Shown: piece after piece, positions 34,183-58,744 of the stretch
Numbering within the stretch: the stretch's first letter is position 1
Layout: each line of letters starts with the position of its first letter
Source of the DNA: an uncultured Bdellovibrionales bacterium
Lineage (GTDB): Bacteria > Patescibacteriota > Minisyncoccia > Moranbacterales > UBA2206
DNA length: 64,000 nt
Direction of reading: 5' to 3'
NCBI GenBank assembly: GCA_964538685.1
Contig: CAZIFD010000001.1
Coordinates: 116,295 to 180,294, forward strand
Made by a program: the position numbers and the translations under genes
The notes under the pieces: model-generated
The model's database searches: none
Seen by the model: the letters and a program-made list of their open reading frames with translations, nothing else
What the model was told of the DNA's origin: nothing

Positions 34183-35469
34183 ATGACAAAAAAAACAGAA
34201 CAGAAAACAGTTTGTGTTGTCGGATTGGGTTATGTGGGTTTGCCTTTGGCAATGCGATCGCTTGAACGAGGTTATGGTGTAATCGGTTTTGATTTGGACG
34301 AGAAAAAAAACCGACTTATCAATCAAGGAAAAAATCCGATTGAAGAAAAATTTTTGGAAAACTACTTTAAAAATTTTCAGTTGCGAGCTACTAGCGACGA
34401 AAAAGAAATTAAAAAAGCGGATATAGTTTTGATTTGTGTTCCGACTCCGGTGGATGAAAAATTTTTTCCCGATCTTCGTCCGGTCAAGGGAGCGACGGAA
34501 TTGGTGGCAAGAAATCTCAAAAAAGGCGCCTTGGTAGTTTTGGAATCAACAGTGAATCCTGGCGTTTCAGAGGAAGTGGTGGCGCCGATTCTTGAAGTGG
34601 CGGGACACAAAATTGGCGAAGATGTTTTTTTGGCTCACTGTCCGGAAAGAATCAATCCGGGAGACGAGAATTGGAATGTGACCAATATTCCTCGGGTAGT
34701 CGGTTCTTTTGAAAAAAAAGGTCTCAAAATGGCTAAAGATTTTTATGAATCAATTGTGGATGGACCAATCAGACCAATGAAATCCATTCGGGAAGCGGAA
34801 GCGGTCAAGATTGTGGAAAATTCTTTCCGAGATATTAATATTGCTTTTGTGAACGAGCTGGCTAAATCTTTTGACAAGTTGGATATTGATGTTCGGGATG
34901 TGATTTTGGGGGCTGCTACCAAGCCCTTTGCTTTTCTGGCTCACTTCCCTTCTTGTGGAGTGGGCGGTCACTGTATTCCGGTTGACCCTTACTATCTTAT
35001 TGAACGCGCCAAGGAATCGGGATTTGACCATAAATTTCTTAGAATTGCTCGCGAAATCAATAACTCAATGCCAGAATACACCGTGGAAAAACTGCAGGAC
35101 GCTTTGAATGAAATCAAACTCCCGATGAAAGGAACGAAAGTCGGACTGTTGGGAATTTCCTACAAAGCCAATGTGGATGATGTGCGTGAATCTCCCTCTC
35201 TCAAAATTATGGAATTGCTCAAAAAATATGGTTGCGATTTTCAAGTCTTTGACCCGCATATTCTTTCAAAATCAACGGTCAAAAATTTGGAAGCTATTCT
35301 AAAAAAATCCCAAGCTTTGATTTTGGCTACCAATCACGATGAATTTCTTGATATTGACGGACCAATGCTCAAGAAGTTTGGTGTTAAAATTGTAATTGAT
35401 GGGAAGAATTGTTTGGACAAGCAAAAAATCAAAAAATCAGGTATAATATATAAAGGAATCGGAAGATAG
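34183..35469 (+). CDS. UDP-N-acetyl-hexosamine (ManNAc/GlcNAc) 6-dehydrogenase, WecC/WbpA-like
   Basis: Rossmann VVGLGYVGLPLA, catalytic-Cys motif GGHCIPVDPYYL typical of WecC/WbpA rather than Ugd. Confidence 0.75.
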   Translation: MTKKTEQKTVCVVGLGYVGLPLAMRSLERGYGVIGFDLDEKKNRLINQGKNPIEEKFLENYFKNFQLRATSDEKEIKKADIVLICVPTPVDEKFFPDLRPVKGATELVARNLKKGALVVLESTVNPGVSEEVVAPILEVAGHKIGEDVFLAHCPERINPGDENWNVTNIPRVVGSFEKKGLKMAKDFYESIVDGPIRPMKSIREAEAVKIVENSFRDINIAFVNELAKSFDKLDIDVRDVILGAATKPFAFLAHFPSCGVGGHCIPVDPYYLIERAKESGFDHKFLRIAREINNSMPEYTVEKLQDALNEIKLPMKGTKVGLLGISYKANVDDVRESPSLKIMELLKKYGCDFQVFDPHILSKSTVKNLEAILKKSQALILATNHDEFLDIDGPMLKKFGVKIVIDGKNCLDKQKIKKSGIIYKGIGR

Positions 35470-35505
35470 TTTCCGGTTTAGAATTTAAAATTTAAAATTA
35501 TAGCT

Positions 35506-35736
35506 ATGTTTAGTTTGATCAAAGGTATTATCTGGTTAGTGGGTTTGGTAGTGGTGGCAATGTTTGTTTTGAATTATTTTGGCTTTGAGGTGAATAAAAA
35601 TTATTTCAATGAAAGCAAAAACGGATGTCAAGAGCGTCTTGAAACTTGCGCCAAGGAGTATATGGAACAAGGAACCAAAAACGCCAAATGTGATTTTGAT
35701 TGCGTTGATCCAAAATTAATAATCAAGAAAAAATAA
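35506..35736 (+). CDS. Small secreted/membrane Cys-rich protein
   Basis: 76 aa, N-terminal TM, four Cys in the C-terminal part. Confidence 0.4.
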   Translation: MFSLIKGIIWLVGLVVVAMFVLNYFGFEVNKNYFNESKNGCQERLETCAKEYMEQGTKNAKCDFDCVDPKLIIKKK

Positions 35737-35740
35737 AGTC

Positions 35741-36691
35741 ATGAAATTAATCGTCAATATCCCAGCTTACAATGAAGAAGAAAAAATTGCGGAAACTATC
35801 AGACGCATTCCCAAGGATTTTTCCGGAATTTCAGAAGTTTTTATTCAAGTTATAGATGATGGTTCCAGCGACAAAACCGTTTCTGAAGCGGAGAAAGGCG
35901 AAGCTGATGCCGTTTATTCCAATGGAATTAATCGGGGAATCGGGGTAACTTTCAGAAATGCGGTTCATCAAGCCTTGGAAAATGGAGCGGATATTATGGT
36001 GAACATTGATGCGGATGGTCAATTTAATCCCAGTGATATTCAAAAAATCATTGATCCGATTCGGAAAAACGAAGCCGATATGGTGAGCGCTGATCGTTTT
36101 GGCGAAAAAAAGGCCAAGGATATGCCGGGAGCCAAATATTATCTTAACCGTTTGGCTGCTTGGATAATAAGCAAGTTTATGAATGTCAGGATTAAGGATT
36201 TAACTTGTGGTTTCAGAGCTTATTCCAGAGAAACCTTAATGCGACTTAATCTTCCCGGAAACTTCACTTATACCCAAGAAACAATCATTGACGCTTTGGG
36301 AAAAAATTTAAAAATCAAATGGGTTCCGGTTGAAGTTACTTATTTTGCGGAAAGAAAATCCCGTGTGGTTAAAAGCATTTGGAACTATGTCAATAACAGT
36401 TTTCGCATCATCCTAAAAGCGGTTCGCGATGTTCGCCCGATGAAATTTTTTGGAATTCCCGGTTTGGGAATGATTTTCGTGTCTATTGTTTTTCTAGTTA
36501 TTTTTTTGATTTTTTATTTTCAGGATTTCAAGATTTCTCCTTACAGAAATTATTTAATTGTTGCCATCAGTCTTTTTTTAATCGGATTGCAATTTATGAT
36601 TTTTGCGTTGATTGCCGATATGATCAAATCCAATCGGAAATTAAACGAAGAGGAAATCTATCTTCTTAAGAAAGAAAAATATAAGAAATAG
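35741..36691 (+). CDS. GT2 polyprenol-phosphate glycosyltransferase (DPM1/GtrB/ArnC-like)
   Basis: NIPAYNEEEKI...VIDDGSSDKT...DADGQ followed by two C-terminal TM helices, the GtrB/ArnC architecture. Confidence 0.75.
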   Translation: MKLIVNIPAYNEEEKIAETIRRIPKDFSGISEVFIQVIDDGSSDKTVSEAEKGEADAVYSNGINRGIGVTFRNAVHQALENGADIMVNIDADGQFNPSDIQKIIDPIRKNEADMVSADRFGEKKAKDMPGAKYYLNRLAAWIISKFMNVRIKDLTCGFRAYSRETLMRLNLPGNFTYTQETIIDALGKNLKIKWVPVEVTYFAERKSRVVKSIWNYVNNSFRIILKAVRDVRPMKFFGIPGLGMIFVSIVFLVIFLIFYFQDFKISPYRNYLIVAISLFLIGLQFMIFALIADMIKSNRKLNEEEIYLLKKEKYKK

Positions 36692-36697
36692 TCTTTT

Positions 36698-37771
36698 ATG
36701 AAAATTCTTTTCATTGCTCATTCTTATCCTCCAATTACTGGCGGAGTGGAAAATCAAAACTTTGAATTATATACTGGGCTTTCAAAAATTGCGAAAGTTA
36801 AATTGTTAGCGAACAAAAAAAGATGGTTGATACCGTTTTTTTTGGGATATGCTTTTATTCGCGGGCTTTTTTCTGCTAGAAATTATGACATTGTTTTTTT
36901 GGGAAGTTGTATTTCGGGGCCGATTGGTTGGGCGATTAAAAAAATGACAAAAACTCCGGTTGTAGCAGTGGCTCATGGTTTGGATTTGACTTGGAAAAAC
37001 AAAATTTATCAAAATTTATGGGTGAAAAAATTCATTCCCTCTCTTGACAAACTGATTGCTGTCGGCAATGAAACTATTGAAGTTGGAGTGGCACGAGGAA
37101 TTCCACGGAAAAAAATGGTTTTTATTCCAAATGGAGTTGATGTGGAAAGATTTATGCGACCGCATTCCCGAGAGGAATTGGAAAAAGTGGTGGGCGAAAA
37201 ATTGGGAGACAAAAAAGTAATTTTAACCACCGGTCGTTTGGCGGTTCACAAAGGAGTGGATTGGTTTTCGGAAAAAGTCGTTTCCTTGCTTCCGGAAAAT
37301 GTGATTTATTTAATTGCCGGAGATGGAGAAAAAAAAGAAGCCGTTCAAAAAATTATCCAAGAAAATAAATTAGAAAATAAGATTAAAATGCTGGGTTATG
37401 TGACTGATGAAGAACGGGAAATTCTTTATAATACAGCCGATATTTATGTGAAACCCAATATCAAAGTTCCGGGGACAATGGAAGGATTCGGGTTGGTTGT
37501 TTTGGAGGCGGCGATTTGCGAACTTCCGGTAGTGGCTTCGGAATTGGAAGGAATAAAAGATGCTATTCAAGATGGCAAAAACGGTTTTTTGGTTAGGCCG
37601 AATGATGCCGATGGTTTTGTCAAAAAAATTGAATACTTGTTGAATGATAATGATTTTCGGAAAGCTTTTGGAAAAAAAGCCAGAGAATACACTAAAGAAA
37701 ATTTTGCTTGGGAAAAAATTTCCCAAAAATATTTAGAGGAAATAACTCAAACTATCAAACAAAATGGTTGA
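36698..37771 (+). CDS. Glycosyltransferase family 4 (GT-B)
   Basis: MKILFIAHSYPPITGGVEN...EGFGLVVLEAAICELPVVAS. Confidence 0.75.
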   Translation: MKILFIAHSYPPITGGVENQNFELYTGLSKIAKVKLLANKKRWLIPFFLGYAFIRGLFSARNYDIVFLGSCISGPIGWAIKKMTKTPVVAVAHGLDLTWKNKIYQNLWVKKFIPSLDKLIAVGNETIEVGVARGIPRKKMVFIPNGVDVERFMRPHSREELEKVVGEKLGDKKVILTTGRLAVHKGVDWFSEKVVSLLPENVIYLIAGDGEKKEAVQKIIQENKLENKIKMLGYVTDEEREILYNTADIYVKPNIKVPGTMEGFGLVVLEAAICELPVVASELEGIKDAIQDGKNGFLVRPNDADGFVKKIEYLLNDNDFRKAFGKKAREYTKENFAWEKISQKYLEEITQTIKQNG

Positions 37772-39701
37772 TACTTTTTTTAATCAGATCCTGTTTCTTT
37801 TGAGCTTGATTTTTATTTTATATTTGCCCGGTCAGGCTTTGCTTTTGGCAGTTTTTGGAAAAAGTCAGACAATGTCTTCTTTGGAAAGATTTGTGGCTTC
37901 TTTCGGTTTGGGTTTGGTGGCGGTGGATTTCATTTGTTTTCTTTATTCCAAATTTAATTGGATAATCGCTCCCCTCTCGGCTTTTTTGGGAATCGGAATT
38001 TTTATTTTAGTTTGCTTGGCTATTTTTAAATTTAGAAAATTTTCTAAAAATAATGAAATTGACAACAAAAATCAAGAACAGCTTTTTTCTTTTTCCAAAA
38101 AGCAATTGCGTTTGATTTTGGTTTTACTTTTGGCGATTTTTTTAGTAAAAACCGCTTATCTTTATGGAACAGTTTTGCCAACAGCGACTGATATGGGGCA
38201 CCATATGTATTGGGCCAAAGAAATGGCAGAAAGCGGAAAATTGCCGACTTATGACGGAATGCCGGATTTTATTATCGGAGAGCATATTATTTTCGGCTTG
38301 GTGGCGATTTTTTCTGGCGCTGATTTTTTCGGGGCCTTTCCGGTTTTACTTCTTTATCTTTTTAATCTTCTGGGAATTTTGGCTATTTTTCTTTTGGTAC
38401 TTCGGATTTTCAGAAATCAAAAAATTGCTATTTTGACTTTGCTTTTTTTAGGCGCGCTTTTTGCTGTTTCTTCCCCTCAAGCTAAATTTGTCAGTGGTGG
38501 CGTGATCGGAAATACTTTGGGAAATTTTCTTTTGCCCTTGGCTTTTTATTTTTATGTCCGAGCCTTTGAATTCCTGAAAAATATAAATTTTCAAGCAAAA
38601 GAAAATAAATCATTAAAAAAAGAAAAAGCTTTTCTGTCTCTGGCTGTTTTTTTGACTTTCGGTCTTTTTTATACACATCATTTGACCGCTTTCATATTTT
38701 TGTTTGTCGTTTTTGGAACCATTTTGATTTATTTTGTTGCTAATTTTCAAGAGGCGACTAGAATTGGCAAAGAACTTTCTCGTTTGGTTTTTTCCCCTTG
38801 GATTTTGGGAACCTTTGCTCTGGGTTTGATTTTTTTCTTTTTTGTTTTTGTTCCCACTTATGTCCAAGGTAGCGCAGTTGAAACGGCCGTTGGCACTCCG
38901 TCCAAATCAACCCGAACGGGCCTTAGTTTGAATAACCTAAAATCAACAGTTGGTAATTTGCGTTTGGGAATGGGTTTTGCGGGAATAATATTTTTGCTTT
39001 TGGCGTATAAAAGAAAAAATATCGGATATGCCTTGATTCTGGGTTGGTCGCTGATGTTGCTTCTTATGTCTACCCGACCCGATTTTCTTTTGATTGATTT
39101 GCCCAGCTCCCGAGTGGGAAATTATTTGTCCTTTCCTTTTGCCATCCTGGCCGCCTTTTCTTTTTGGTTTGTTTTTTCTCTTACTAAAGAAAAAGTTTTT
39201 TTTGCCAATATTTTTTCCGGCATATTGCCTAGATTTTTCTTGCAAGGAAGCTTTTTGGTTTTTTTGTCGGGATTGATTTTTTTCGGAATTTCCGATTCGG
39301 TAGCTTCATTCAAATCACCGGGAAATTACGGCTCACTTTTTGAAACTTTCAGAGCGTCTGAATATTTGGTTGAAGAATCGGAGCTTAGTGATATTATTCT
39401 CAAAGACCATAATTATTTGACCGGTGACACTTGGATGAAACTCTTCTTTATGCGGGGCTATCGCTATCCCCTTTCCCGCAGTTATTTCAAACGCTATGAA
39501 GATGAAACCAATCCGCGCGAAATGTGCACTTTGCAAATGATTTCCTCTCCGGCTTCCGAAGAGGCCAAAAACTGTTTTTCCGAAACCGGAACTAATTTTT
39601 TGGTGGTTAATCACTTGTATGATAGCGCTCAATTTGAAAAAAACAGAGAATTTAATCATATTTATGCCAGTTCCGAAACCAGTATTTATTATAAAAAATA
39701 A
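37764..39701 (+). CDS. Large polytopic membrane protein with C-terminal soluble domain; putative GT-C-fold glycosyltransferase
   Basis: More than 12 TM helices plus about 180 aa C-terminal domain. Occupies the same position after Ugd-like/GT2/GT4 as the recognisable GT-C 52847..54403 in the mirror-image module. No DE motif recognised. Confidence 0.5.
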   Translation: MVDTFFNQILFLLSLIFILYLPGQALLLAVFGKSQTMSSLERFVASFGLGLVAVDFICFLYSKFNWIIAPLSAFLGIGIFILVCLAIFKFRKFSKNNEIDNKNQEQLFSFSKKQLRLILVLLLAIFLVKTAYLYGTVLPTATDMGHHMYWAKEMAESGKLPTYDGMPDFIIGEHIIFGLVAIFSGADFFGAFPVLLLYLFNLLGILAIFLLVLRIFRNQKIAILTLLFLGALFAVSSPQAKFVSGGVIGNTLGNFLLPLAFYFYVRAFEFLKNINFQAKENKSLKKEKAFLSLAVFLTFGLFYTHHLTAFIFLFVVFGTILIYFVANFQEATRIGKELSRLVFSPWILGTFALGLIFFFFVFVPTYVQGSAVETAVGTPSKSTRTGLSLNNLKSTVGNLRLGMGFAGIIFLLLAYKRKNIGYALILGWSLMLLLMSTRPDFLLIDLPSSRVGNYLSFPFAILAAFSFWFVFSLTKEKVFFANIFSGILPRFFLQGSFLVFLSGLIFFGISDSVASFKSPGNYGSLFETFRASEYLVEESELSDIILKDHNYLTGDTWMKLFFMRGYRYPLSRSYFKRYEDETNPREMCTLQMISSPASEEAKNCFSETGTNFLVVNHLYDSAQFEKNREFNHIYASSETSIYYKK

Positions 39702-39706: not shown

Positions 39707-40081
39707 ATGAAATTTGAACTGAAAAAAACCAATCCAATTGTCGTCTCTTTTTTCTTGCTTTTTGCGGTGAGTGTTTTTTTCTTGTTTTGGACTTCCAACC
39801 GACACAGCGATTTGAATTATGAAAAAAATTGGTGGGCGATCTATTTTTCCGAAGCCAAGGGAGACTCTTTGGATTTTTGGATTGAAAACCATTCCAATGA
39901 GAATTATTTTCGTTTTGAAATTTGGCAAGAAAAAAACAAACTTCAAGAAGAAAGTTTGTCAATTGAAAAAGGTGAAAAAAAAGAAATTAAAATAGACGAG
40001 AATGGATTGGAAAAAACCGGGAAAATAAAAATTCAAGTTTTCGCTGGTGAAGATTTGAAATCAATCAGCAAAAATTTTTGA
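39707..40081 (+). CDS. Hypothetical membrane-anchored protein
   Basis: 124 aa with N-terminal TM. Confidence 0.4.
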   Translation: MKFELKKTNPIVVSFFLLFAVSVFFLFWTSNRHSDLNYEKNWWAIYFSEAKGDSLDFWIENHSNENYFRFEIWQEKNKLQEESLSIEKGEKKEIKIDENGLEKTGKIKIQVFAGEDLKSISKNF

Positions 40082-40331: not shown

Positions 40332-41462
40332 ATGTCAAACCAAAAAACTAAAAAAATATTATTTGTCAGTCGGCCTCTTTCCCCTCCTTGGGACGAAGCT
40401 TCCAAAAATCTGGCCTATTTTTTAGCTAAAAATATTTCCGATTTTCAAATTGGAATTATGGTTAAAAAAATATTGCCGGAAGTGGGAAAAAATATTGTTC
40501 AAAATCAAGTTTACACCACTTCCGAAATTTCCGAATTTAATTGGACGGAAAAATTGCGTTCGCTTTTTTTCCAATGGAAGGCACGGGGAAAATTTGATGT
40601 CAATCATTATTTTTTTACTCCGACCAAGCTGAATACTTTTTTGATTAAAAATTTTCTAAAAATCAAAAAAACCAAATCTATTCAAACAGTAGCCACGCTG
40701 CGAGAAGATTTGTGGTCGGATGAAGATTTGAAAAAGTTGCTTTTTGCTGAAAAAATTATCACTTATTCTGATTATTCAAAAAATAAATTAGAAAAGTTGG
40801 GATTTTCGGGAGTGGAAAGAATTTATCCGGGAATTGATTTGGAGATTTATCAAAAAAGACCCAAGGATTCAAAACTGCTTTCCCAATTGGGAATCGGCGC
40901 AGATGATTTTGTGATTACTTATCCCGGAGAATATACGCGTCTTGGAGCAACGGATTTGATAGTTGAAGCATTTCAAGGACTTGAACAAAAAATCAAGAAT
41001 GCCAAATTGATTTTGGCTTGCAGAGTAAAAAACGAAAAAGACCAAAAGAAAAAAGAAGAAATTGCCAAAAAGATCAAGGCCTGGAAAATTTCTGACCGGG
41101 TAATTTTTTTGGATACTTTTTCCGAAATGTCAAAAATCTACAATTTGTCCGAGCTGGTTATTTTTCCGGTTTCCAATATGCGGGGAAAATTTGATGTTCC
41201 GTTGGTTATTCCGGAAGCTCAAGCTTCAAGAAAGCCGGTCATTGTCTCCGATCTTCCTATTTTGAAAGAGTTCGCAAATCCGACTAATTCGGTTATAATT
41301 AAAAAAGACAATCCGAAAGAGCTGGAGCAGGCTATTTTTGATCTTTACGAGCATCCGGAAAAAAGAGAAAGTATCGGTCAAGCCGGAAGGATTTTTGCTG
41401 AAAATAATTTTGATATTAAAAAAGTAGCTCAGGAATACGAAAAAATTTATGCCAAAATATAA
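40332..41462 (+). CDS. GT-B fold glycosyltransferase (GT4-like)
   Basis: Two Rossmann-like halves. The C-terminal region has a GT4-like E...E pattern (VIPEAQASRKPVIVSD). Confidence 0.55.
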   Translation: MSNQKTKKILFVSRPLSPPWDEASKNLAYFLAKNISDFQIGIMVKKILPEVGKNIVQNQVYTTSEISEFNWTEKLRSLFFQWKARGKFDVNHYFFTPTKLNTFLIKNFLKIKKTKSIQTVATLREDLWSDEDLKKLLFAEKIITYSDYSKNKLEKLGFSGVERIYPGIDLEIYQKRPKDSKLLSQLGIGADDFVITYPGEYTRLGATDLIVEAFQGLEQKIKNAKLILACRVKNEKDQKKKEEIAKKIKAWKISDRVIFLDTFSEMSKIYNLSELVIFPVSNMRGKFDVPLVIPEAQASRKPVIVSDLPILKEFANPTNSVIIKKDNPKELEQAIFDLYEHPEKRESIGQAGRIFAENNFDIKKVAQEYEKIYAKI

Positions 41463-42945
41463 TTTTAAAAAAATTTCCTCTCATAAACAGGAGATGAAAA
41501 CGGAAAAAATGAAAGTGCCGGCTGTTCTTCATGTTTCAGATGAATTGCTTCCGGCCGATCGGACATTGGAAGAAATTGAAAATGTAGCCACTTCCGAGTA
41601 TGCTTTTCATCATTTGGTGGCGATGAGTGATGTCCATAGCAAAAAAGGTCGCAAAAATCCGACCGGAACTGTCTTTGCTTCGGAAAAATATCTTTTGCCT
41701 CAAATTAATGATACGGCGCCCAATTGCGGAATGCGTTTTTTGAAAACCAATCTTACTGACAAAGATATTGAAGGAAAAAAATTAGACGAGCTTTTTGAAG
41801 CTTTGGTCAAAGTGATTCCGACTAAAAAATATGTGGGAACTAAAATTCCCTATAATTTGGTTTTGGATATTTGTCGCCAAGGAGTGGCTCCGGTCAAAGA
41901 ATATTTTCAAACCAAAACCAAAAATGAAATAGAAAATTCTTTCAAGCAAGGAAATTTTTTTGAAAAAGAAATAAGCCGAAGAGATATTTTGGATGTTATT
42001 CCCAAACTTTTTCTTTGGATTGGAAAATACCGTTTGGGAATTTTGGGAGCGGCTGGCAATCATTTTTTGGATTTGATGAAAGTAGGAAAAATAAAAGATG
42101 AAAAATTGGCTCAAAAGCTCGGGGTTTTTGAAGGCCAATATATTTTTCTGATGCACACCGGTTCCGGTCTTTTGGGTCAGTATGCTTCTTATATGTACAC
42201 TCCGAAAAAAAAGGAGCACTTGAGTCAGCGAATAGTTTTGGAATTGGGAAAAATGACTTTTGATTCACAACTAAAAAAAGTTTATTCCGGCTTAGCGCCA
42301 CTTATTTCCGAGTTTAAGAACAAAAAAGAATTTTTTGCTTATGACGAAGAAAGCTTGGAGGGACAAATGTTTCTTCGCTCTCACAACGCAGTGGCCAATC
42401 ATGGTTTTGCCAACCGGGTGATTTTAACTGATCATTTGGAAAAAACTTTGACTGCTTTTTTGGGTCGGGATTCGGAATTGGATATGCTTTATGATATGCC
42501 TCATGTTTATGTTAACCAAGAAGAACATTTCGGCAAAAAGGTGTGGGTCCATCGCAATGGTACTGTCCGAGCCAATGGCCCCAAGAGAATGAATGATCAT
42601 CCTCTGTTTTCTCAAACCGGAGAGCCGGTTTTTATCCCGTCTTCCATGAGTACCCCGGCCTATTTGGCAGTTGGAACCGATGAAAATGAGTCCGGTTTCT
42701 TTTCTGCTTCTCATGGAACCGGAAAAAGAAAAGATCCTTTGGCTGACAAAGCTGAGAGCAAAAAAGAGCTTTTGAAAAAAATGGAGAAAAATCAAATAAA
42801 ATTATTTAATGCCAAATCAAGGGGCGTAATTCAGCAAGACAGCGGTTATTATAAAGATGTGGAAGAGGTAATTGCCGGAATTGAAGAAAATAAAATTGCC
42901 AGGGTGGTGGCCAAGATGCAACCGGTGGCGGTGATTATGTATTGA
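41449..42945 (+). CDS. rtcB: RtcB-family RNA 3'-phosphate ligase
   Basis: RtcB metal/GMP motifs in order: AMSDVHSKKG, APNCGM, GAAGNHF, LMHTGSGLLG, AVANHGFANR, HRNGTVRA, SASHGTGKRK. 498 aa. Confidence 0.75.
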   Translation: MPKYNFKKISSHKQEMKTEKMKVPAVLHVSDELLPADRTLEEIENVATSEYAFHHLVAMSDVHSKKGRKNPTGTVFASEKYLLPQINDTAPNCGMRFLKTNLTDKDIEGKKLDELFEALVKVIPTKKYVGTKIPYNLVLDICRQGVAPVKEYFQTKTKNEIENSFKQGNFFEKEISRRDILDVIPKLFLWIGKYRLGILGAAGNHFLDLMKVGKIKDEKLAQKLGVFEGQYIFLMHTGSGLLGQYASYMYTPKKKEHLSQRIVLELGKMTFDSQLKKVYSGLAPLISEFKNKKEFFAYDEESLEGQMFLRSHNAVANHGFANRVILTDHLEKTLTAFLGRDSELDMLYDMPHVYVNQEEHFGKKVWVHRNGTVRANGPKRMNDHPLFSQTGEPVFIPSSMSTPAYLAVGTDENESGFFSASHGTGKRKDPLADKAESKKELLKKMEKNQIKLFNAKSRGVIQQDSGYYKDVEEVIAGIEENKIARVVAKMQPVAVIMY

Positions 42946-42951
42946 TTTATT

Positions 42952-43590
42952 ATGAAAATTATTACAATTTCCGGAGTGGACGGAAGCGGAAAATCCACTC
43001 AAATAAAATTATTGGCGGAATATTTGCAAAAAGAAGGCTTTCAAGTTTTCTATTTTCATGCGGTGGAATTTTCGCTAGCCGGAAAAATAGCCAATCTAAA
43101 AAAATATTGCTGGCTTTGCCAGATTCTGGGTAAATGTAAAATCAAAAAAAATGATTCTGATTTTCACAAGAATGACATTCAAGGGAAAAGTGTAATCAAG
43201 GCGAATTATGTCCAGTTATTTTTACGGAAGATTTTTTTGCGAATTGATATTTTTCGTTTTCAGCAATTACTTAAAAAATTAGAAAAGCAAGGTTGTGATT
43301 ATATTTTGAGCGATCGCTATTTTTTTGATTCGGTGGTTAATATTGAATATTTGAGCCATAAGAATTTTGAATTTGGTTTTCCCAAAAACATAATTCCCGA
43401 AAAATCTTTTTATCTATCGGTTTTGCCTGAAGAAATTATGAAAAGAGAAAGAATTCCCGACCAAGGATTGGAATATTTAATGGAAAAACAAAATATATTT
43501 TCAAAAAAAATTGAAAATTGGAAGCTGTTGAAAATTGACGGTAATCGAAAAAAAGAAGAAGTTTTTGAGGATATTTTGAATAAAATATAA
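42952..43590 (+). CDS. Divergent dTMP-kinase-like P-loop kinase
   Basis: P-loop ITISGVDGSGKSTQ and the DRY motif ILSDRYFFDS of the thymidylate kinase family. No TREPGGT motif. Confidence 0.55.
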   Translation: MKIITISGVDGSGKSTQIKLLAEYLQKEGFQVFYFHAVEFSLAGKIANLKKYCWLCQILGKCKIKKNDSDFHKNDIQGKSVIKANYVQLFLRKIFLRIDIFRFQQLLKKLEKQGCDYILSDRYFFDSVVNIEYLSHKNFEFGFPKNIIPEKSFYLSVLPEEIMKRERIPDQGLEYLMEKQNIFSKKIENWKLLKIDGNRKKEEVFEDILNKI

Positions 43591-45081: not shown

Positions 45082-45087
45082 AAATAA

Positions 45088-45117
45088 CCCTCAAGGCACC
45101 TTGTGGCTTCTTGAGGG
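45088..45117. terminator. Bidirectional terminator-like hairpin CCCTCAAGG-N12-CTTGAGGG
   Basis: 8-9 bp stem between the Wzx stop (45081) and the stop of the minus-strand 43-aa ORF (45128). A/T-rich flanks on both sides. Confidence 0.45.
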
Positions 45118-45127
45118 AGGGGGTTGT

Positions 45128-45259
45128 TTATTTTTCTTCTTTTTTCTTTATTCCTTCTTTTTCTTTATTCGGTTCCTCCTCCAATAACGGAGGAACATAA
45201 ACCAGTCCCCCAAGTGCTATGGGAGTTCCATATTTTGGGCACGGCTCTTTTTTTGCCAT
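45128..45259 (-). CDS. Candidate 43-aa small protein (MAKKEPCPKYGTPIALGGLVYVPPLLEEEPNKEKEGIKKKEEK)
   Basis: Not in the ORF table. Very strong SD (AAAGGAGGGG) 7 nt upstream of the ATG, terminator hairpin right after the stop. Lies in a 734-bp region with no ORF of 60 aa or more. Confidence 0.3.
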   Translation of the reverse strand: MAKKEPCPKYGTPIALGGLVYVPPLLEEEPNKEKEGIKKKEEK

Positions 45260-51793: not shown

Positions 51794-52843
51794 ATGACTA
51801 AAAAAACAAAAATTTTTTTTGCAGTTTCTTTGCTTCTGGGATGTGTGGCGATTGTCGGAGGAAATTATTTTTTGTCGTTTAATCGGAAACAAAAAAAAGA
51901 AAAGGAAATCTTGCTTCAAAAAGAAAAAGATGCTGAATTAAAAATAGGTGTTATAACCGATATTCACGCTTGTGTGGAAGGTTATCCCGATTTAAACCCT
52001 TTTCTTCTCGCTACCAAAGAAGCAAGAACTGATTTTAATGTAAGTTTGGGAGACAATATCAATTTCAGAGTTGGTAATTGTTCCGCTTCTTATCAGGCGG
52101 ATTTATCTTGGGTGACGGAAAAACTCAAATTAGCTGAGCCGTTTCATTGGGTTTTGGGTGACCATGATATTGGGGACGAGAATTCAGTAGTTTTTTGGAA
52201 AGAAAAAACCGGGAAAAACAAAGAGTACTATTCTTTTGATAAAGGAGATTTTCATATTGTCATTCTGGATACGATTTTGGGAGGAGATGAAATGCGATTA
52301 AACTGTTCTTTGGACGAGAAGTGTTTGTTGGCAGAAAATAATTATAAAGAAATCAAAAAAATTTCCAAAAATCCAATTGAAAAAAAGGTTTTTATTGAAA
52401 AAAATAAGTTGGACGAGGTTGGTTTGGAACAGCTTTTGAAAGAAAGATTAGAAGCGTACGAAAAAGAACTGGATGCGGTCAAATGGGTTCGTTCCAGTGG
52501 AAGAAGAGATATCGGCCGAATCGGACAAGCACAACTGGATTGGTTGTTAGCGGATTTGGCGGGATCGCAAAAAAGCAATGTGGTGGTTTTTTCCGATCAT
52601 CCTTTGTTTCATTTCATTTCTCATCGGAAAGAATATAACATTGAAAACGGAGAATCAGTCAGGAAAATTTTGGAATCATCAGGAAAAGAAGTGGTGGCGA
52701 TTTCCGGAGAAGCGCATCTTTGGCACGAGGAAAATTTAAACGGGATTCATTATTTCATTATTGATCGTTTCTCTGGCAATGGAAGTTTTGCTGTTTTTAA
52801 TTGGAACAAAGACGGATTTCGTTTGGAAAAATTTCCCCGTTAA
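51794..52843 (+). CDS. Calcineurin-like metallophosphoesterase, membrane-anchored
   Basis: GVITDIHAC, GDHD, ...GEAH metallophosphatase motifs. N-terminal TM. Start abuts the stop of the upstream GT-C gene. Confidence 0.75.
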   Translation: MTKKTKIFFAVSLLLGCVAIVGGNYFLSFNRKQKKEKEILLQKEKDAELKIGVITDIHACVEGYPDLNPFLLATKEARTDFNVSLGDNINFRVGNCSASYQADLSWVTEKLKLAEPFHWVLGDHDIGDENSVVFWKEKTGKNKEYYSFDKGDFHIVILDTILGGDEMRLNCSLDEKCLLAENNYKEIKKISKNPIEKKVFIEKNKLDEVGLEQLLKERLEAYEKELDAVKWVRSSGRRDIGRIGQAQLDWLLADLAGSQKSNVVVFSDHPLFHFISHRKEYNIENGESVRKILESSGKEVVAISGEAHLWHEENLNGIHYFIIDRFSGNGSFAVFNWNKDGFRLEKFPR

Positions 52844-54403: not shown

Positions 54404-55362
54404 ATTTTTTTTATTTTTTTATTTTTAAGATAAAGTGGCAACGCAAAAAAACTGATTAACATTTGAACAGTCCGGCTGATAATGGCTACAGTCAGAACTC
54501 CGGCCGGATTGAGTCCGAAAACTCCGAAAAAAGTGATATAAGCCCATTCTTTGAGTCCGATGTTGTTGACACTGATTGGAATGGAAGAAACAATGGAAAT
54601 TAAAAAAACAACCGACAAATAATCCAACAAACCGATTTTTATATCTAAAGCCAAAAAAAGAAGATAATTCAGAAGGGCTACGCCGACAATGGAGAAAAGA
54701 ACGGAATAAGTAATTGACTGGACGACAATTTTTTTGTCCTTGTTGTAGTTTCCCAATTCTCTCAAAAATTCAATGAATTTTTCCGGTGCTATTTTGAAAA
54801 CTATCTTTTTGAGAAACTTTATTTTTCTTATTTGAGGAATAAGAATGTCCGAACCGCAAGACAAAACAAGGATAATGTTAATAACAAAAAGTGTTTCGTC
54901 GGCAATTACTTTTTTCCAGTTGAGCAAACTGAAAAACAACGCCAAAAAAGTGGCGCCAATCAATCCGGTAATGCGATCCATCATTACGGTTGATGCAGCT
55001 TGAGAATATTTTTCATCTTTCTTCCCGATTTCATAAGCTTTGTAAGCGTCTCCGGCGATAAAAGACGGCATAAAATTATTAATGAAAGTGCCGGTGAAAT
55101 ACAGTTTGAAAAAAGTAAAACCGGAAAAATTAAATCCTTTGTATTGAGACAAAATTTTCCATTTGTGGGAAGACAGCCAAAAGCTCAAAAACAATACGCC
55201 GACATAAGCTATCAAATACCAAGGATTGATTTCTTTGACATAAAACAAAACATCCTGCCAGTTGGTGGACCAAACAATCCAAGCTAAAAAAACCGCGCTG
55301 ACGATTATTTTGATGGCAGTTTTTAATTTTTTATTTAGTTTTGGTTTTTTCATAAAATTCAA
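54400..55362 (-). CDS. UPF0104 / LPG-synthase-TM 'flippase-like' membrane protein
   Basis: 8 TM helices, N-terminal Lys-rich segment. Family resemblance to PF03706 is from memory. Overlaps both neighbours, so likely translationally coupled. Confidence 0.55.
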   Translation of the reverse strand: MNFMKKPKLNKKLKTAIKIIVSAVFLAWIVWSTNWQDVLFYVKEINPWYLIAYVGVLFLSFWLSSHKWKILSQYKGFNFSGFTFFKLYFTGTFINNFMPSFIAGDAYKAYEIGKKDEKYSQAASTVMMDRITGLIGATFLALFFSLLNWKKVIADETLFVINIILVLSCGSDILIPQIRKIKFLKKIVFKIAPEKFIEFLRELGNYNKDKKIVVQSITYSVLFSIVGVALLNYLLFLALDIKIGLLDYLSVVFLISIVSSIPISVNNIGLKEWAYITFFGVFGLNPAGVLTVAIISRTVQMLISFFALPLYLKNKKIKKI

Positions 55363-56482
55363 AATATTTTTCAGCCACTTTTTTCCAACTCATCTCTTCG
55401 GCTTTTTGGCGACTTTTTTGAGACATTAATTCTTTCTGTTCGGGATCTTGAATGAGTTTTTCCACTTTTTCGGCAATGTCTCGGGCATCTTTCATTTTGA
55501 CAATAAATCCATTTTCGTTTTCACTGACTAGTTCCCGAGTGCCTCCGGTGTCAGTGGCAATAAGGGGTAGTCCGGAAGCAAGAGCTTCCAACATGGTGTT
55601 AGACATTCCTTCGTTGAGCGACGGCAAGACAAAGACATCTGATGTGGCATAAATCGTAGCTACTTTTTCGTGGGGAACGCGACCCAAAAACTCAATTTTG
55701 TTTTTTAGGGCAAGTTTTTGTGCTTTTTCTTCCAACTCTTTTTTGGCATCCCCTTCTCCGGCTAAAATTAGTTTTATGTCGGGATATTTTTCCGAAAGCA
55801 ATGAAACAGCTTCAATGAGATATTCAATCCCTTTTCTTTGAGTGAGTCTGGATATGCATACTAACCTAAAAATATTGTCTTGGCCGATTTTATTTTTTGG
55901 TTGAAATTCCTGAATATCAACTCCGTTATGAATGACCCCAATCTTTTGATCAGGAGCGGATATTTTTGCCAAATCTTTGAGTCCTTGACTGTTAGCAATA
56001 ACAAAGGAAGATTCTTTCCATATTTTTTTAATAAGCGGAGTGATGATTTTATAAAGAAAAGAAAAGCGTTCGCTGTAGCCCGGAACATCGGCGCCACGCA
56101 AAGAAACAATATAAGGCAAATGATATTTTTTCCAAAATAAAAAAGACAAAAATCCGCAAGGAACAGTAAAAAAAGAATGGGAAAGGTCAAATTTTTTCTT
56201 TTTGAGCAATCGGCGACAAAAAAAGAAAGCTTTCCACGAATAGATTAAAAGATCTTTTTGAGATTGATAATGAAGATTTTCGGAATTTTTTCCAATTGGC
56301 AAACGATGAATGACAATGTTCCCTCTTATTTTTTCTTGGGAATAATTTTTGTCTATGGAAGAAGTTATGAGTTCAATTTCAATTTCAGGAAAGCGGGAAA
56401 ATTCCTCAAAAATATATTGAGTGGCGTTAGCGGCTCCTCCGCCAAGAGGCGGATATTCGTAATTAAGGAAAAGAATTTTCAT
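55331..56482 (-). CDS. Glycosyltransferase family 4 (GT-B)
   Basis: MKILFLNYEYPPLGGGAANAT...EGMSNTMLEALASGLPLIATDTGG. Confidence 0.8.
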   Translation of the reverse strand: MKILFLNYEYPPLGGGAANATQYIFEEFSRFPEIEIELITSSIDKNYSQEKIRGNIVIHRLPIGKNSENLHYQSQKDLLIYSWKAFFFCRRLLKKKKFDLSHSFFTVPCGFLSFLFWKKYHLPYIVSLRGADVPGYSERFSFLYKIITPLIKKIWKESSFVIANSQGLKDLAKISAPDQKIGVIHNGVDIQEFQPKNKIGQDNIFRLVCISRLTQRKGIEYLIEAVSLLSEKYPDIKLILAGEGDAKKELEEKAQKLALKNKIEFLGRVPHEKVATIYATSDVFVLPSLNEGMSNTMLEALASGLPLIATDTGGTRELVSENENGFIVKMKDARDIAEKVEKLIQDPEQKELMSQKSRQKAEEMSWKKVAEKYFEFYEKTKTK

Positions 56483-56493
56483 AAAAAATTAAT

Positions 56494-57801
56494 TTAATTT
56501 CTCCCTACTCCAAAATATTCAAATCCGGCATCTTTCAGAGTTTGCGGGTCATACACATTTCGGAGATCAACAAAAACCGGTTTTTTCATTAATTTTTTAA
56601 TTTTAGACAAATCCAGCGAACGGTATTCATTCCATTCAGTCAGAAGAACAAGGCATTCGGCGTTTTTGGCGACTTCATAGGGGTCGCCCACATATTCAAT
56701 TTCCGGCATCAATTCTTTGGCGACTTTCATTGCTTCAGGATCGTGCGCTTTAACAAGGGCGCCTTTTTCAGAGAGAGCGGTTAAGATTGTGAGAGCGGCT
56801 GCTTCACGCATATCATCAGTTTCCGGCTTGAAAGCCAAACCTAAAATCCCGACAGTTTTTCCTGACTCATTTCCTCCTAAAGCTTTTTTAACTTTCTGGA
56901 CCATCCGAGCTTTCTGGGCACTGTTGACTTCAATGACGGTCTCCACAATGCGACTGGGAGCGCCGTGTTCTTGAGCGATGCGAGTGAGGGCGTGAGTATC
57001 TTTGGGAAAACAAGATCCGCCGTAGCCCGGACCGGGATGCAAAAATTTTGGTCCGATTCTTTTGTCCAGTCCCATTCCTTTGGAAAGAGCGGTAATATCG
57101 GCGTTGATTTCTTCGCACAAATTGGCCATTTCATTAATGAAGCTGATTTTGGTAGCCAGAAAGGCGTTGGAAGCGTATTTGATAAGTTCGGCGGTTTGCG
57201 GATTAGTAACCACCATTGGGGTTTCAATAAGGTAAAGCGGTTTATAAATATCCCGCATCACTTTTTCGGCTTTTTTGGTTTCTACTCCAATAACCACTCG
57301 GTCAGGACGCATAAAATCATCAATTGCAGCTCCTTCTCGCAAAAATTCCGGATTGGAAACTACATCAAATTTGGCTTTCTTGTTGGTTTCTTTGATGATT
57401 CTCTTGACTTGTTTGGCTGTACCGACCGGAACGGTGCTTTTGTCAATAACGGCAGTGTAGTGATTGATGTGGGGCGCAATTTCTCGGGCGGCTTCATAAA
57501 CAAAAGATAAGTCGGCATAGCCGTCGCCACGACGCGAAGTTGGAGTTCCGACAGCAATAAAAACCGCATCCATATCAGTTACGGCTTTTTTGGTTTCAGT
57601 AGTGAAAGAAAGTCTTTTTTCCTTAACATTTTTAGCTACCAACTCGTCAAGTCCGGGTTCGTAGATTGGAATTTTTCCTTTCTCCAAGGCTTCAATTTTT
57701 TTCTTGTCTTTGTCTAAGCAAATCACACTATTGCCAAATTCTGCCAAACAGGTGCCACTGACGAGTCCGACATAACCTGTTCCAATGATGCCGATTTTCA
57801 T
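56494..57801 (-). CDS. ugd: UDP-glucose 6-dehydrogenase
   Basis: GTGYVGLVSG Rossmann, catalytic-Cys GGSCFPKD. 435 aa. Confidence 0.85.
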   Translation of the reverse strand: MKIGIIGTGYVGLVSGTCLAEFGNSVICLDKDKKKIEALEKGKIPIYEPGLDELVAKNVKEKRLSFTTETKKAVTDMDAVFIAVGTPTSRRGDGYADLSFVYEAAREIAPHINHYTAVIDKSTVPVGTAKQVKRIIKETNKKAKFDVVSNPEFLREGAAIDDFMRPDRVVIGVETKKAEKVMRDIYKPLYLIETPMVVTNPQTAELIKYASNAFLATKISFINEMANLCEEINADITALSKGMGLDKRIGPKFLHPGPGYGGSCFPKDTHALTRIAQEHGAPSRIVETVIEVNSAQKARMVQKVKKALGGNESGKTVGILGLAFKPETDDMREAAALTILTALSEKGALVKAHDPEAMKVAKELMPEIEYVGDPYEVAKNAECLVLLTEWNEYRSLDLSKIKKLMKKPVFVDLRNVYDPQTLKDAGFEYFGVGRN

Positions 57802-57805
57802 AAAT

Positions 57806-58744
57806 TTATCTTTCGCTTATTTTTTTAATTTTGTAATTCATATGACCTTGGTTTTTGTAATAATTTTTGACCATAATATCAGCCAAGAGTCCGAAAACAA
57901 AAAGTTGGATGCCAATCATAATCAAAAATACTCCAACTAGTGGCCAAATTTTTTCACTGAGCGAAGTTCCAAAAAATATTTTTTCTATTAACATCCAAGC
58001 CAAGACAGCGATTCCGAGAAGCGACAAAACGATGCCACTGCCACCGAAAAGGTGAAGTGGTCGGTTGGAATATTTTCGCCAAAACCAAATGGAAATCATA
58101 TCTACAAAACCTTTGACTCCCCTTTTCCAATTATATTTGGTCTTGCCGTGAATTCTGGGATGATGTGATACCTTAACTTCGCCGACTTTGTAGCCTTCCA
58201 ATTCCAAGATAGCCGGAATAAAACGATGCATTTCTCCAAAAAGATCAACATCTTGAAAACATTCTCTTTTGTAGGCTTTGAGCGAACAACCGGAATCGTG
58301 AATTTTGTCTTGAATCAGAATTTTTCTGAGAAGATTGGCGGTTCGGGAAAAGAATCGTTTGGAAAAAGTGTCTTTTCTATCAAATCTCCAGCCGGAAACC
58401 ACATCAAACCCTTGGCTTATTTCAGAAAGAAGAAGCCGGATGTCGGCTGGATCGTTTTGGAGGTCGCCGTCCATTGTGATGATTATTTCTCCGTTTGCAT
58501 TTTTGATGCCGGCGTCAAAAGCGGCGGTTTGGCCGAAATTTTTTCGGAATTGAATCAGCTTGAGAGGTGTTAGTCCTTCGGTTTCAGAAACGGTTTTATC
58601 TTTGGATCCGTCGTCAATAAAAATTATTTCATAACTTTTTCCCAATGACTCGCAAGCCTCTTTGATTTTTCGGTGCAATTCTTTGACATTCCCCTCTTCG
58701 TTGTAAAGTGGCACGACAACTGACAGTTCTTTGGTGTGTTCCAT
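57806..58744 (-). CDS. GT2 polyprenol-phosphate glycosyltransferase (DPM1/GtrB/ArnC-like)
   Basis: LSVVVPLYNEEGNV...IFIDDGSKDKT...MDGDLQ plus two C-terminal TM helices. Confidence 0.75.
   Translation of the reverse strand: MEHTKELSVVVPLYNEEGNVKELHRKIKEACESLGKSYEIIFIDDGSKDKTVSETEGLTPLKLIQFRKNFGQTAAFDAGIKNANGEIIITMDGDLQNDPADIRLLLSEISQGFDVVSGWRFDRKDTFSKRFFSRTANLLRKILIQDKIHDSGCSLKAYKRECFQDVDLFGEMHRFIPAILELEGYKVGEVKVSHHPRIHGKTKYNWKRGVKGFVDMISIWFWRKYSNRPLHLFGGSGIVLSLLGIAVLAWMLIEKIFFGTSLSEKIWPLVGVFLIMIGIQLFVFGLLADIMVKNYYKNQGHMNYKIKKISER

Follow-up and report, generated by a model that had tools for sequence, protein, structure and literature searches.

Two candidate transmembrane glycosylation units, independently assembled within a conserved envelope glycan cluster of Moranbacteria

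Introduction

A 64,000-nucleotide stretch of DNA from an uncultured bacterium of the Patescibacteriota (GTDB Moranbacterales, UBA2206; GenBank assembly GCA_964538685.1, contig CAZIFD010000001.1, positions 116,295 to 180,294; the whole stretch is referred to here as the window) carries two sets of glycosyltransferase genes on opposite strands. Each set combines a nucleotide-sugar dehydrogenase, a GT2 and a GT4 glycosyltransferase and a polytopic membrane protein. An earlier note, made from the sequence alone, had read them as diverged, mirror-image copies of a four-gene module, each copy making a distinct lipid-linked uronic acid for a dedicated GT-C glycosyltransferase. The locus raises the question of whether the two sets are related as copies, and what such sets are likely to do.

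By sequence comparison, the two units are independent assemblies, analogous in composition, within one conserved cluster. They are best read as multi-component transmembrane glycosylation systems of a known kind in an uncultivated lineage of the candidate phyla radiation (CPR). We give a probability of about 0.7 to this reading, in which there are two independent units and, in each, a lipid-linked sugar is made inside the cell, flipped, and transferred outside by a GT-C enzyme. The CPR, or Patescibacteria, make up a very large and mostly uncultivated share of bacterial diversity, and their envelope chemistry is almost unknown.

Gene content of the two units

The plus-strand unit consists of the following genes (coordinates are those of the window; transmembrane (TM) segments are given in residues):

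34183-35469, plus strand: NDP-sugar 6-dehydrogenase (DH) of the WecC/Cap5O/TviB type, UDP-ManNAc/UDP-GlcNAc dehydrogenase-like; TIGR03026, motif GGHCIPVD; an optional member
35506-35736, plus strand: s76, a 76-aa single-pass membrane protein; TM 4-22; four conserved Cys
35741-36691, plus strand: putative polyprenol-phosphate GT2 (DPMS/AglJ/PpgS-like); Pfam GT2 63.9 bits; TM 242-260 and 273-291
36698-37771, plus strand: GT4 (GT4_36698); Pfam Glycos_transf_1 133 bits; 8-nt overlap with the start of the GT-C gene
37764-39701, plus strand: TM645, a 645-aa glycosyltransferase of predicted GT-C fold, DUF1616/DUF6541 family
39707-40081, plus strand: s124, a 124-aa single-pass membrane protein; TM 11-29; positional partner of TM645

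The plus DH scores 412.7 bits against TIGR03026 (NCBIfam cut-off 189.8) and stays below the cut-offs of the equivalog models (archaeal UDP-ManNAc dehydrogenase, 313.8 bits against 750; a second model, 246 against 459; TviB, 242 against 592). Its best structures in the PDB are 4r16 (259 bits) and Cap5O (244 bits); judged by sequence, it is nearer to archaeal and staphylococcal UDP-ManNAc dehydrogenases than to the minus-strand dehydrogenase. The plus GT2 aligns over its full length with P. furiosus DPMS (57 bits) and ArnC (46 bits). Its NCBIfam matches, AglJ (118 bits) and PpgS (83 bits), are each under cut-off, and with 118.3 bits against a cut-off of 325 for TIGR04182 it does not qualify as an archaeal AglJ. 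The GT4_36698 subfamily, which comprises 1,085 clusters at E ≤ 1e-30, includes members fused to UPF0104, deacetylase, methyltransferase or GT2 domains; the methyltransferase fusions are seen in P0256 and P0278. The small protein s76 has no Pfam match. Exactly four cysteines are found in 56 of its 58 orthologues; its N-terminus is a TM helix and its C-terminal end reads DP(K/Q)LIIKK. By analogy with GacJ, the partner of GacI, s76 may be a small partner of the plus GT2.

The minus-strand unit consists of:

57806-58744, minus strand: putative polyprenol-phosphate GT2 (ArnC/GtrB/PgfS-like), first gene of the operon; TM 235-253 and 269-287
56494-57801, minus strand: UDP-glucose 6-dehydrogenase (Ugd/TuaD type); motif GGSCFPKD; an optional member
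55331-56482, minus strand: GT4 (GT4_55331); Pfam Glycos_transf_1 158.8 bits
54400-55362, minus strand: UPF0104/LPG_synthase_TM (MprF-flippase-like, 'PplT') membrane protein; Pfam 141.7 bits; TIGR00374 flippase-like 92.5 bits
52847-54403, minus strand: ArnT/PMT_2-type GT-C, 518 aa; Pfam PMT_2 and predicted fold; 4-nt overlap with UPF0104

The minus GT2 matches the NCBIfam models for ArnC (169 bits) and PgfS (157 bits), each under cut-off, and, among PDB sequences, ArnC (156 bits) and GtrB (120 bits). Both GT2s thus align over their full length with ArnC, GtrB or DPMS and carry two C-terminal TM helices, as would be expected of membrane-anchored GT-A synthases. The minus dehydrogenase is identified as a Ugd by its subfamily score (TIGR03026, 495.6 bits against 189.8), its catalytic Cys motif and its closeness to characterised Ugd enzymes (PDB 4a7p, 561 bits); the TuaD equivalog score, 557.7, is under the cut-off of 700. 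The two dehydrogenases belong to different subfamilies, WecC/Cap5O-like and Ugd, as had been noted earlier. Orthologues of GT4_55331 in minus-type loci share 51-60% identity with it. The UPF0104 protein, whose start overlaps the end of GT4_55331 by 32 nt from a TTG start or by 23 nt from the first ATG, is predicted from its family to be a flippase of lipid-linked sugars or glycolipids. The 518-aa GT-C scores above the Pfam gathering threshold for PMT_2, and its predicted structure (predicted local distance difference test, pLDDT, 90; ArnT 20.6, ALG12 20.6, Pmt2 19.5) has an ArnT/PMT-like fold, which places it with the ArnT/PMT_2 (GT83/GT39-like) enzymes. On this model it is a commonplace member of that type, with several paralogues elsewhere in the cluster.

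The genes in both units lie very close together, from a 32-nt overlap to an 11-nt gap, bar the 36 nt after the plus DH. The spacings (in nt, overlaps negative) are DH 36 s76 4 GT2 6 GT4 -8 TM645 in the plus unit, and GT2 4 Ugd 11 GT4 -32 UPF0104 -4 GT-C in the minus unit. Both sets are co-directional, tightly packed and recur in other genomes, beyond chance grouping, which bears out the earlier suggestion that they are operons. The open reading frames (ORFs) on which the earlier note was built are all where it had placed them, its two quoted dehydrogenase motifs are present, and Pfam and NCBIfam agree with its families for the dehydrogenases, GT2s, GT4s, UPF0104 and the PMT_2-type GT-C. The UPF0104 flippase-like protein is found only in the minus unit, again as described.

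The units are not copies of each other

An ancestral four-gene module that was duplicated and inverted would account for the DH, GT2, GT4 and GT-C genes being common to both units. It would also fit an all-against-all comparison within the window, in which the two GT2s, and likewise the two GT4s, are each other's best match along their full length. The similarity is low: in pairwise BLASTP the two GT2s are 28% identical, the two GT4s 25% and the two dehydrogenases 29%. For the polytopic pair, TM645 and the minus GT-C, there is no sequence similarity (best BLASTP E 0.07), and the alignment of the two families gives an hhalign probability of 11%; what links them is the GT-C fold predicted for both.

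Each enzyme compared is nearer to relatives outside the window than to its supposed copy. The minus Ugd scores 561 bits against the Sphingomonas Ugd structure 4a7p and 141 bits against the plus DH, which itself scores 259 bits against 4r16; the minus GT2 scores 156 bits against ArnC and 120 against GtrB, compared with 88 against the plus GT2. For GT4_36698, an exhaustive search of 1.84 billion cluster representatives (50%-identity clusters) shows that GT4_55331, at 106.7 bits and E 1.5e-25, is outranked by at least 1,085 clusters (E ≤ 1e-30).

The arrangement of the genes does not support a mirror image either. The order is DH-s76-GT2-GT4-GT-C in the plus unit and GT2-DH-GT4-UPF0104-GT-C in the minus unit, and when one unit is compared by blastn with the reverse complement of its counterpart, short patches are all that is found, with no inverted repeat at the DNA level. 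A repeat finder reports in-register patches of 61 nt (70%) and 43 nt (79%), which encode the GT4 N-terminus and the IDDGS-DKT segment of GT2; since these are family-wide motifs, the similarity of the units is at the level of the family or broad subfamily. The same applies to the N-terminal sequences of the two GT4s that the earlier note had quoted as shared: they are present, and represent a generic motif of the GT4 family rather than a sign of kinship. Pairwise, global and PDB comparisons, gene order and DNA repeat tests together lead us to reject mirror-image copies, and the duplication model, in which each copy makes a lipid-phosphate-linked uronic acid (glucuronic acid, GlcA, in one and an N-acetylhexosaminuronic acid, HexNAcA, in the other) for its own GT-C, is very improbable.

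The 'four-gene module' is itself partly a selection from a larger pool. Its genes and their coupling are real; the plus operon, though, runs on through a 124-aa protein, a GT4, RtcB, a P-loop protein and Wzx, and there are additional glycosyltransferases nearby.

The 645-residue protein of the plus unit

In the window, TM645 has only weak Pfam matches, to DUF6541 and DUF1616. An AlphaFold2 model built on 35 homologues (pLDDT 80; predicted template modelling score 0.85) was compared with the PDB by Foldseek. All 16 matches at E ≤ 1e-3 are GT-C enzymes, led by yeast STT3 (1.7e-7) and followed by AglB, DPY19 and AftA. By its predicted fold, TM645 is therefore a GT-C glycosyltransferase, as the earlier note had anticipated by analogy, and no named GT-C Pfam model matches the family. 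DUF1616 matches all 35 family members and DUF6541 30 of them; STT3 (PF02516), PMT and PMT_2 match none of the 35 at E ≤ 1, and the family profile has no match among PDB sequences at E ≤ 10.

In the model, a three-helix N-terminal extension precedes the GT-C core, which is followed by an AglB-like C-terminal globular domain; no such C-terminal match is seen for the model of the minus GT-C. An invariant D143-x-G145-H146-H147 is found in the family directly behind the first core helix, within the first external loop. Further invariant residues are E173, H305-H306, R384, R450 and K547-D548-H549; of these, R384 borders a loop (residues 370-383) that is conserved but modelled with low confidence. 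The C-terminal domain also has an invariant pair of cysteines (C588 and C604). The oligosaccharyltransferase (OST) hallmark WWDYG is absent from all 35 members, as are WWD and W[WY]D; where it would be, the family has an invariant K547-D548-H549-x-Y551.

The modelled combination of a GT-C membrane domain with an AglB/STT3-type C-terminal globular domain is that of an OST-type enzyme. STT3, AglB and PglB are, however, generic structural matches for wall-polymer GT-Cs (PMC8035078), and only the match of the C-terminal domain is therefore specific to the OST architecture. ArnT gives nearly the same score, and an OST-like reading of the TM domain was downgraded accordingly.

The gene that follows is also characteristic. 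In 79 of 80 loci an ORF of 60-200 aa (about 120 aa) begins within 200 nt after the TM645 homologue, and in 76 it has an N-terminal TM segment. In the window this is s124, which may be a subunit or an acceptor-binding partner of TM645. The protein is fast-evolving, with a recurrent motif 'NWW-A-SF ... F-IEN-S'.

The best homologues of TM645 are from Candidatus Moranbacteria and Parcubacteria, and relatives are present in at least 225 species-level genomes. In the literature, DUF1616 appears only as a substrate of AglB in Haloferax, and we found no paper on CPR oligosaccharyltransferases or CPR wall-glycan clusters. A DUF1616/DUF6541 GT-C family with an AglB-like C-terminal domain and a constant partner of 120 aa appears not to have been described in the literature searched. 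One could go further and see in TM645 and s124 an unrecognised bacterial OST-like GT-C of STT3/AglB-like architecture. Together with an AglJ/DPMS-like GT2, GT4, an archaeal-type UDP-HexNAc dehydrogenase and Wzx, it would make up a pathway of archaeal style via polyprenol monophosphate, common to Moranbacteria and Parcubacteria, that passes a short glycan en bloc to a wall polymer or to a protein at the cell surface. We consider this unlikely.

Conservation in related genomes

For the plus unit, proteins of the window were mapped by tblastn onto the best 80 of the 225 TM645-relative loci (species-level genomes). A block of about 15 genes is near-invariant in these 80 Moranbacteria loci: gt2a, LCP (LytR-CpsA-Psr), gt4a, Wzy and gt4b in one direction, then DH, s76, GT2, GT4, GT-C, s124, gt4c, RtcB, Tmk and Wzx in the other. 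A GT4 lies upstream of the plus GT-C in 69 of 71 loci (adjacent in 61), and the plus GT2 is found in 67 of 69, with a median identity of 69%. Where the upstream sequence is long enough, GT2 and GT4 occur as a pair in 65 of 69 plus-type loci; of the close minus-type loci, most of those reaching beyond the GT2 have the pair too. The slot of the DH is bracketed in 51 loci; the gene is present in 41 and absent in 10, in eight of which a gap of only 190-450 bp is left. Since GT2 and GT4 stay where the DH is lost, the constant core of the plus unit is GT2, GT4, GT-C and s124, with the DH as an accessory.

The minus unit is seen in several arrangements. Close orthologues of its GT2 (64-81% identity) are followed by Ugd, GT4 and UPF0104 in L089, L090, L094 and L004-L006; by GT4, with or without UPF0104, and no Ugd in between, in L097, L099, L100 and L102; and by PMT genes only in L088 and L091. 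UPF0104 is kept after GT4 in L004-L006, L089, L090, L094, L097 and L167. In the window and in L167, the GT-C runs in the same direction as UPF0104 and shares 4 nt with it. L168 also has a codirectional GT-C, and in L004-L006 and L094 a GT-C on the opposite strand converges on UPF0104. The core of the minus unit can be written GT2-(Ugd)-GT4-UPF0104, with a GT-C that is codirectional or convergent, or that is missing. L005 has the last genes of the plus block (Tmk, Wzx) and a minus unit on a single contig, oriented to each other as they are in the window.

Fusions connect some of these proteins. The metallophosphoesterase encoded beside the minus GT-C (51794-52843 in the window) is fused to the GT-C in P0132/33/35/40/41 and in L006 (8001-10442; ~813 aa), and to UPF0104 in L005 (9623-11512, 629 aa), which suggests that GT-C, UPF0104 and metallophosphoesterase are functionally linked. 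Such fusions appear not to have been described in the literature searched.

Insertions are seen in some relatives. In L001 (7156-8786), four minus-strand genes (a Zn-ribbon protein, two unknowns and a methyltransferase) lie between the plus GT2 and GT4. Small genes for 23S_rRNA_IVP/bAvd-like four-helix bundles are inserted between minus-type genes in the two closest relatives, L167 (3606-3968 and 6701-7021) and L168 (1005-1376), and not in the window. Many metagenome-assembled genomes with a Moranbacteria-type cluster (L012, L013, L016, L017 and others) are publicly labelled 'uncultured Bdellovibrionales bacterium', which looks like a systematic mislabel.

Proposed mechanism

In the preferred reading, a membrane-anchored GT2 of the DPMS/GtrB/ArnC superfamily would load a sugar onto polyprenol phosphate at the cytoplasmic face, as its family and architecture suggest. 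The GT4 would work on this side of the membrane as well, with that lipid-linked intermediate or a membrane glycolipid as its most likely substrate. The product would then be moved outward by a flippase, for which the candidates are UPF0104 in the minus unit (141.7 bits, a predicted role) and, in the plus unit, the Wzx protein 4 kb downstream at the end of the same string, or an as yet unknown protein. Outside, the GT-C would transfer the sugar or sugars to an acceptor, which may be a wall polymer, a lipoglycan or a protein; polytopic transferases of GT-C fold with an acidic motif in an extracytoplasmic loop are present for this step. The dehydrogenases would supply uronic acids, of the UDP-HexNAc type in the plus unit and of the UDP-Glc type in the minus unit, as accessory members, because many relatives have no dehydrogenase at these positions.

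Several observations weigh against this reading. Canonical three-component systems have no GT4, so that the role given to this enzyme is guesswork. The function of UPF0104 as a flippase of polyprenol-linked sugars is itself a prediction, and the annotated genes of the cluster include no GtrA-type flippase. Since there are at least five GT-Cs for two such GT2s, gene order does not reveal which donor goes with which transferase. There is no GT-C near the minus core in L090, where GAF/PAS and FtsA-like genes come next, or in L097. Finally, a priming phosphoglycosyltransferase for the Wzx/Wzy/LCP part of the cluster was not seen in the 27-64 kb region.

The view that uronic acids are what the GT2s load onto the lipid has a precedent in RgtE/RgtD/RgtF, which work with bactoprenyl-phosphate-galacturonic acid (PMC7663294). 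As described above, the dehydrogenase is missing from 10 of 51 plus loci and from several minus loci that retain GT2 and GT4, and this view leaves the GT4s without a role. An alternative outlet for the plus DH product may be a WecG/TagA/CpsF-family glycosyltransferase encoded 21 kb upstream of the cluster at 12293-12985 (plus strand; Pfam 114.6 bits). UDP-ManNAc or UDP-ManNAcA serves as donor for this family in known systems, and from its sequence the enzyme is a candidate consumer of UDP-ManNAcA. Uronic acids as the GT2 substrate are thus a tentative idea that we rather doubt. The 'dedicated' pairing of each GT2 with one GT-C is also doubtful, because at least five GT-Cs surround two GT2s and because the position of the minus GT-C in relatives varies.

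It is also possible that the units work in an archaeal style. The GT2 would prime polyprenol monophosphate, as AglJ does, the GT4 would extend it (with a uronic acid where there is a dehydrogenase), and the short lipid-phosphate-linked oligosaccharide would be flipped and transferred en bloc by the GT-C, in the plus unit an STT3/AglB-like enzyme acting on a protein or wall polymer. A parallel is found in the Haloferax Agl pathway (PMC3871713); on balance we find the route rather unlikely.

A lipoglycan pathway gives the GT4 a different part. Here the GT4, with Ugd, would make a glycolipid anchor (GlcA-diacylglycerol or a glycosyl-phosphatidylglycerol), UPF0104 would flip it, and the GT-Cs would elongate it outside with polyprenol-phosphate sugars made by the GT2; the route resembles lipomannan assembly in Corynebacteria. 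MprF-type domains are known to flip modified phospholipids. The overlap of 23-32 nt between GT4 and UPF0104, and the GT4-UPF0104 and GT4-deacetylase fusions in the GT4_36698 subfamily, are consistent with such a pathway, and five GT-C paralogues in a row suggest extracytoplasmic polymerisation. There is a precedent in gpgSDF, in which GpgS makes GlcNAc-phosphatidylglycerol and is accompanied by a deacetylase and a predicted UPF0104 flippase (PMC12713373), and GT-B-UPF0104 fusions are widespread (PplT preprint). However, both window GT4s reach only 62-71 bits with the NCBIfam model for GlcN-phosphatidylglycerol synthase, whose cut-off is 480; UPF0104 can pair with a GT2 as well, as it does in archaeal AglD; and the plus unit has no UPF0104. 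As the specific role of the GT4, the lipoglycan pathway, too, is rather improbable.

The surrounding glycan cluster

Both units are enclosed in a cell-envelope glycan cluster of ~31 kb that is conserved across Moranbacteria (GC content of the window ~36%). The window holds five GT4s, three GT2s, two dehydrogenases and at least five GT-C-type genes. The genes of the cluster outside the two units are:

27676-28512, minus strand: soluble GT2 (gt2a), left edge of the conserved block; Glycos_transf_2 73.6 bits; no TM; 19 of 80 loci
28546-29739, minus strand: LCP protein; LytR_cpsA_psr 123 bits; TM 22-40; syntenic in 29 loci
29829-30992, minus strand: GT4 (gt4a); Glycos_transf_1 130 bits; syntenic in 46 loci
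31001-32596, minus strand: Wzy_C/O-antigen-ligase-family polytopic protein, a putative polymerase or ligase; Wzy_C 57.7 bits; ~13 hydrophobic segments; syntenic in 50 loci
32601-33779, minus strand: GT4 (gt4b), divergent from the plus operon; Glycos_transf_1 102.7 bits; syntenic in 53 loci
40332-41462, plus strand: GT4 (gt4c); Pfam Glycos_transf_1 64.6 bits; syntenic in 71 of 80 loci
41449-42945, plus strand: RtcB-family protein; Pfam RtcB 236.5 bits; syntenic in 66 of 80 loci
42952-43590, plus strand: P-loop protein (Tmk); Thymidylate_kin 40.5 bits, residues 6-36 only; syntenic in 55 loci
43600-45081, plus strand: Wzx/MurJ-type (MOP superfamily) flippase, last of the plus string; Polysacc_synt 78.6 bits, MurJ 46 bits; syntenic in 53 loci
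45816-47339, minus strand: 507-aa PMT_2-like GT-C, ADE motif after TM1; hhalign against the PMT_2 family alignment 95.8%, E 7e-9
47572-49353, minus strand: PMT_2-type GT-C, 593 aa; Pfam PMT_2 40.5 bits
49418-51793, plus strand: PMT/PMT_2-type GT-C, 791 aa; PMT_2 53.4 bits, PMT 39.4 bits
51794-52843, plus strand: membrane-anchored calcineurin-like metallophosphoesterase; Metallophos 32.4 bits; TM 5-23

Members of the LCP family ligate wall polymers to peptidoglycan. With Wzx, Wzy_C, LCP, five GT4s and the WecG/TagA-family enzyme all present, and the plus 'module' embedded in a conserved string of ~15 genes, there might be no separate modules at all: all GT2s and GT4s would then build one undecaprenyl-pyrophosphate-linked repeat unit of a single Wzx/Wzy/LCP-dependent wall polysaccharide. 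This is quite unlikely. Both unit GT2s have the DPMS/GtrB/ArnC architecture with C-terminal TM hairpins, which is characteristic of polyprenol-phosphate sugar synthases and atypical for repeat-unit GT2s, each is linked to a GT-C, and the minus core also occurs outside polysaccharide clusters, for example in L090.

Among the GT-C genes between the units, 47572-49353 is the nearest window paralogue of the minus GT-C (33% identity, ~170 bits), and the 507-aa protein has a weak NCBIfam match to Agl23. The RtcB and P-loop genes (41449-43590) sit between a GT4 and Wzx, a position kept across Moranbacteria (e.g. L001, L003 and L005) that is odd for a glycan operon. A lineage-wide 15-gene block that includes RtcB appears not to have been described in the literature searched. 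No ORF in the 735 bp between Wzx and the 507-aa GT-C (45081-45816) exceeds 57 aa, and the segment has neither a tRNA nor an Rfam match; several strong promoter-like sites in it face the minus strand. In DNA as AT-rich as this, scans for promoters and terminators give too much background for the ends of the operons to be placed. tRNA and Rfam scans of the cluster found nothing.

Beyond the minus unit, and divergent from it, 58889-61573 (plus strand) encodes a SIS-domain (GmhA-like) protein, a PfkB kinase, a HAD (GmhB-like) phosphatase and a cytidylyltransferase-like protein. This four-gene set looks like a pathway to a nucleotide-activated heptose; it is not kept beside the minus unit in L004-L006. 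The next gene (61582-63501, plus strand) encodes a 639-aa protein with a papain-family C1 peptidase, a lectin-like domain and DUF5648. Its N-terminus is hydrophobic, so that it is probably secreted or surface-bound.

Significance

Moranbacteria keep a glycan cluster of ~15 genes near-invariant, and with it an apparently undescribed GT-C family that occurs in at least 225 genomes. The second unit, consisting of an ArnC-like GT2, (Ugd), GT4 and UPF0104, usually with a GT-C, recurs in the lineage together with Rosetta-stone fusions, and would allow the idea that UPF0104 flips lipid-linked sugars to be tested in a bacterium. Both units are concrete, testable candidates for surface decoration in these episymbiotic bacteria. 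As the duplication idea fails, their general significance is moderate.

Comparison with known systems

The lipid A pathways Arn (ArnC/ArnT) and Rgt (galacturonic acid) are Ugd-linked bacterial analogues of the units, each with Ugd, a GT2 (ArnC or RgtE) and a GT-C (ArnT or RgtA-D/F). The GT4 and UPF0104 of the units have no counterpart there. A place for the minus GT2 in the Arn pathway to 4-amino-4-deoxy-L-arabinose was considered and rejected: it scores 169 bits against a cut-off of 529 for the ArnC equivalog (NF007986), and the genes annotated in the cluster (27-64 kb) include no ArnA, ArnB, ArnD, ArnE/F or UDP-GlcA 4-epimerase, and no formyltransferase/decarboxylase, aminotransferase, deformylase or SMR genes. 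CPR bacteria are generally considered to lack lipopolysaccharide.

The gpgSDF operon for GlcN-phosphatidylglycerol in P. aeruginosa (PMC12713373) and the PplT fusions share with the minus unit a glycosyltransferase followed by a UPF0104 flippase-like gene. Unlike gpgSDF, the units have no deacetylase, and they add a polyprenol-phosphate GT2 and a GT-C.

Parallels are also found in archaea. A triad of polyprenol-phosphate GT2, UPF0104 (arCOG00899) and PMT/STT3-like GT-C (arCOG00563) was predicted in 2015 (PMC5898192), and the minus unit has the same GT2, UPF0104 flippase-like and GT-C triad as these AglD-like neighbourhoods. AglD, however, has its UPF0104 domain on the same polypeptide as the GT2; in the minus unit UPF0104 is a protein of its own, and its gene abuts that of the GT4. 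In the Agl pathway of Haloferax volcanii (PMC3871713), a UDP-Glc dehydrogenase (AglM) supplies hexuronic acids and a Wzx-like protein, AglR, takes part, and the best matches of the plus GT2 and plus DH are archaeal enzymes. The equivalog scores are, on the other hand, far under cut-off (AglJ, 118 against 325; AglM, 386 against 670), and unlike AglB the plus GT-C has no WWDYG.

The kind to which the units are assigned here is that of the three-component systems, of which GtrA-GtrB-GtrX, CsbB-GtcA-YfhO, GacI/J-GacK-GacL and GtsABC have been reviewed (PMC8035078; see also PMC11127046). In the wall glycosylation of Gram-positive bacteria it is usual for a genome to encode several GT-A/GT-C pairs (PMC8035078). 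As in these systems, a membrane-anchored GT-A (GT2) enzyme, the putative polyprenol-phosphate sugar synthase, is combined with a flippase candidate and a polytopic GT-C; putative small membrane partners comparable to GacJ are present, and the units are set beside Wzx/Wzy/LCP wall-polymer genes, as in the secondary cell wall polymer cluster of B. anthracis. In contrast to them, the flippase candidate is UPF0104 (minus) or Wzx (plus) rather than GtrA, the plus GT-C lies outside the described GT-C families, and the units come from an uncultivated CPR bacterium. They also carry a tightly coupled GT4 and often a nucleotide-sugar dehydrogenase, and it is this near-constant GT4 partner that is the unusual trait of both units.

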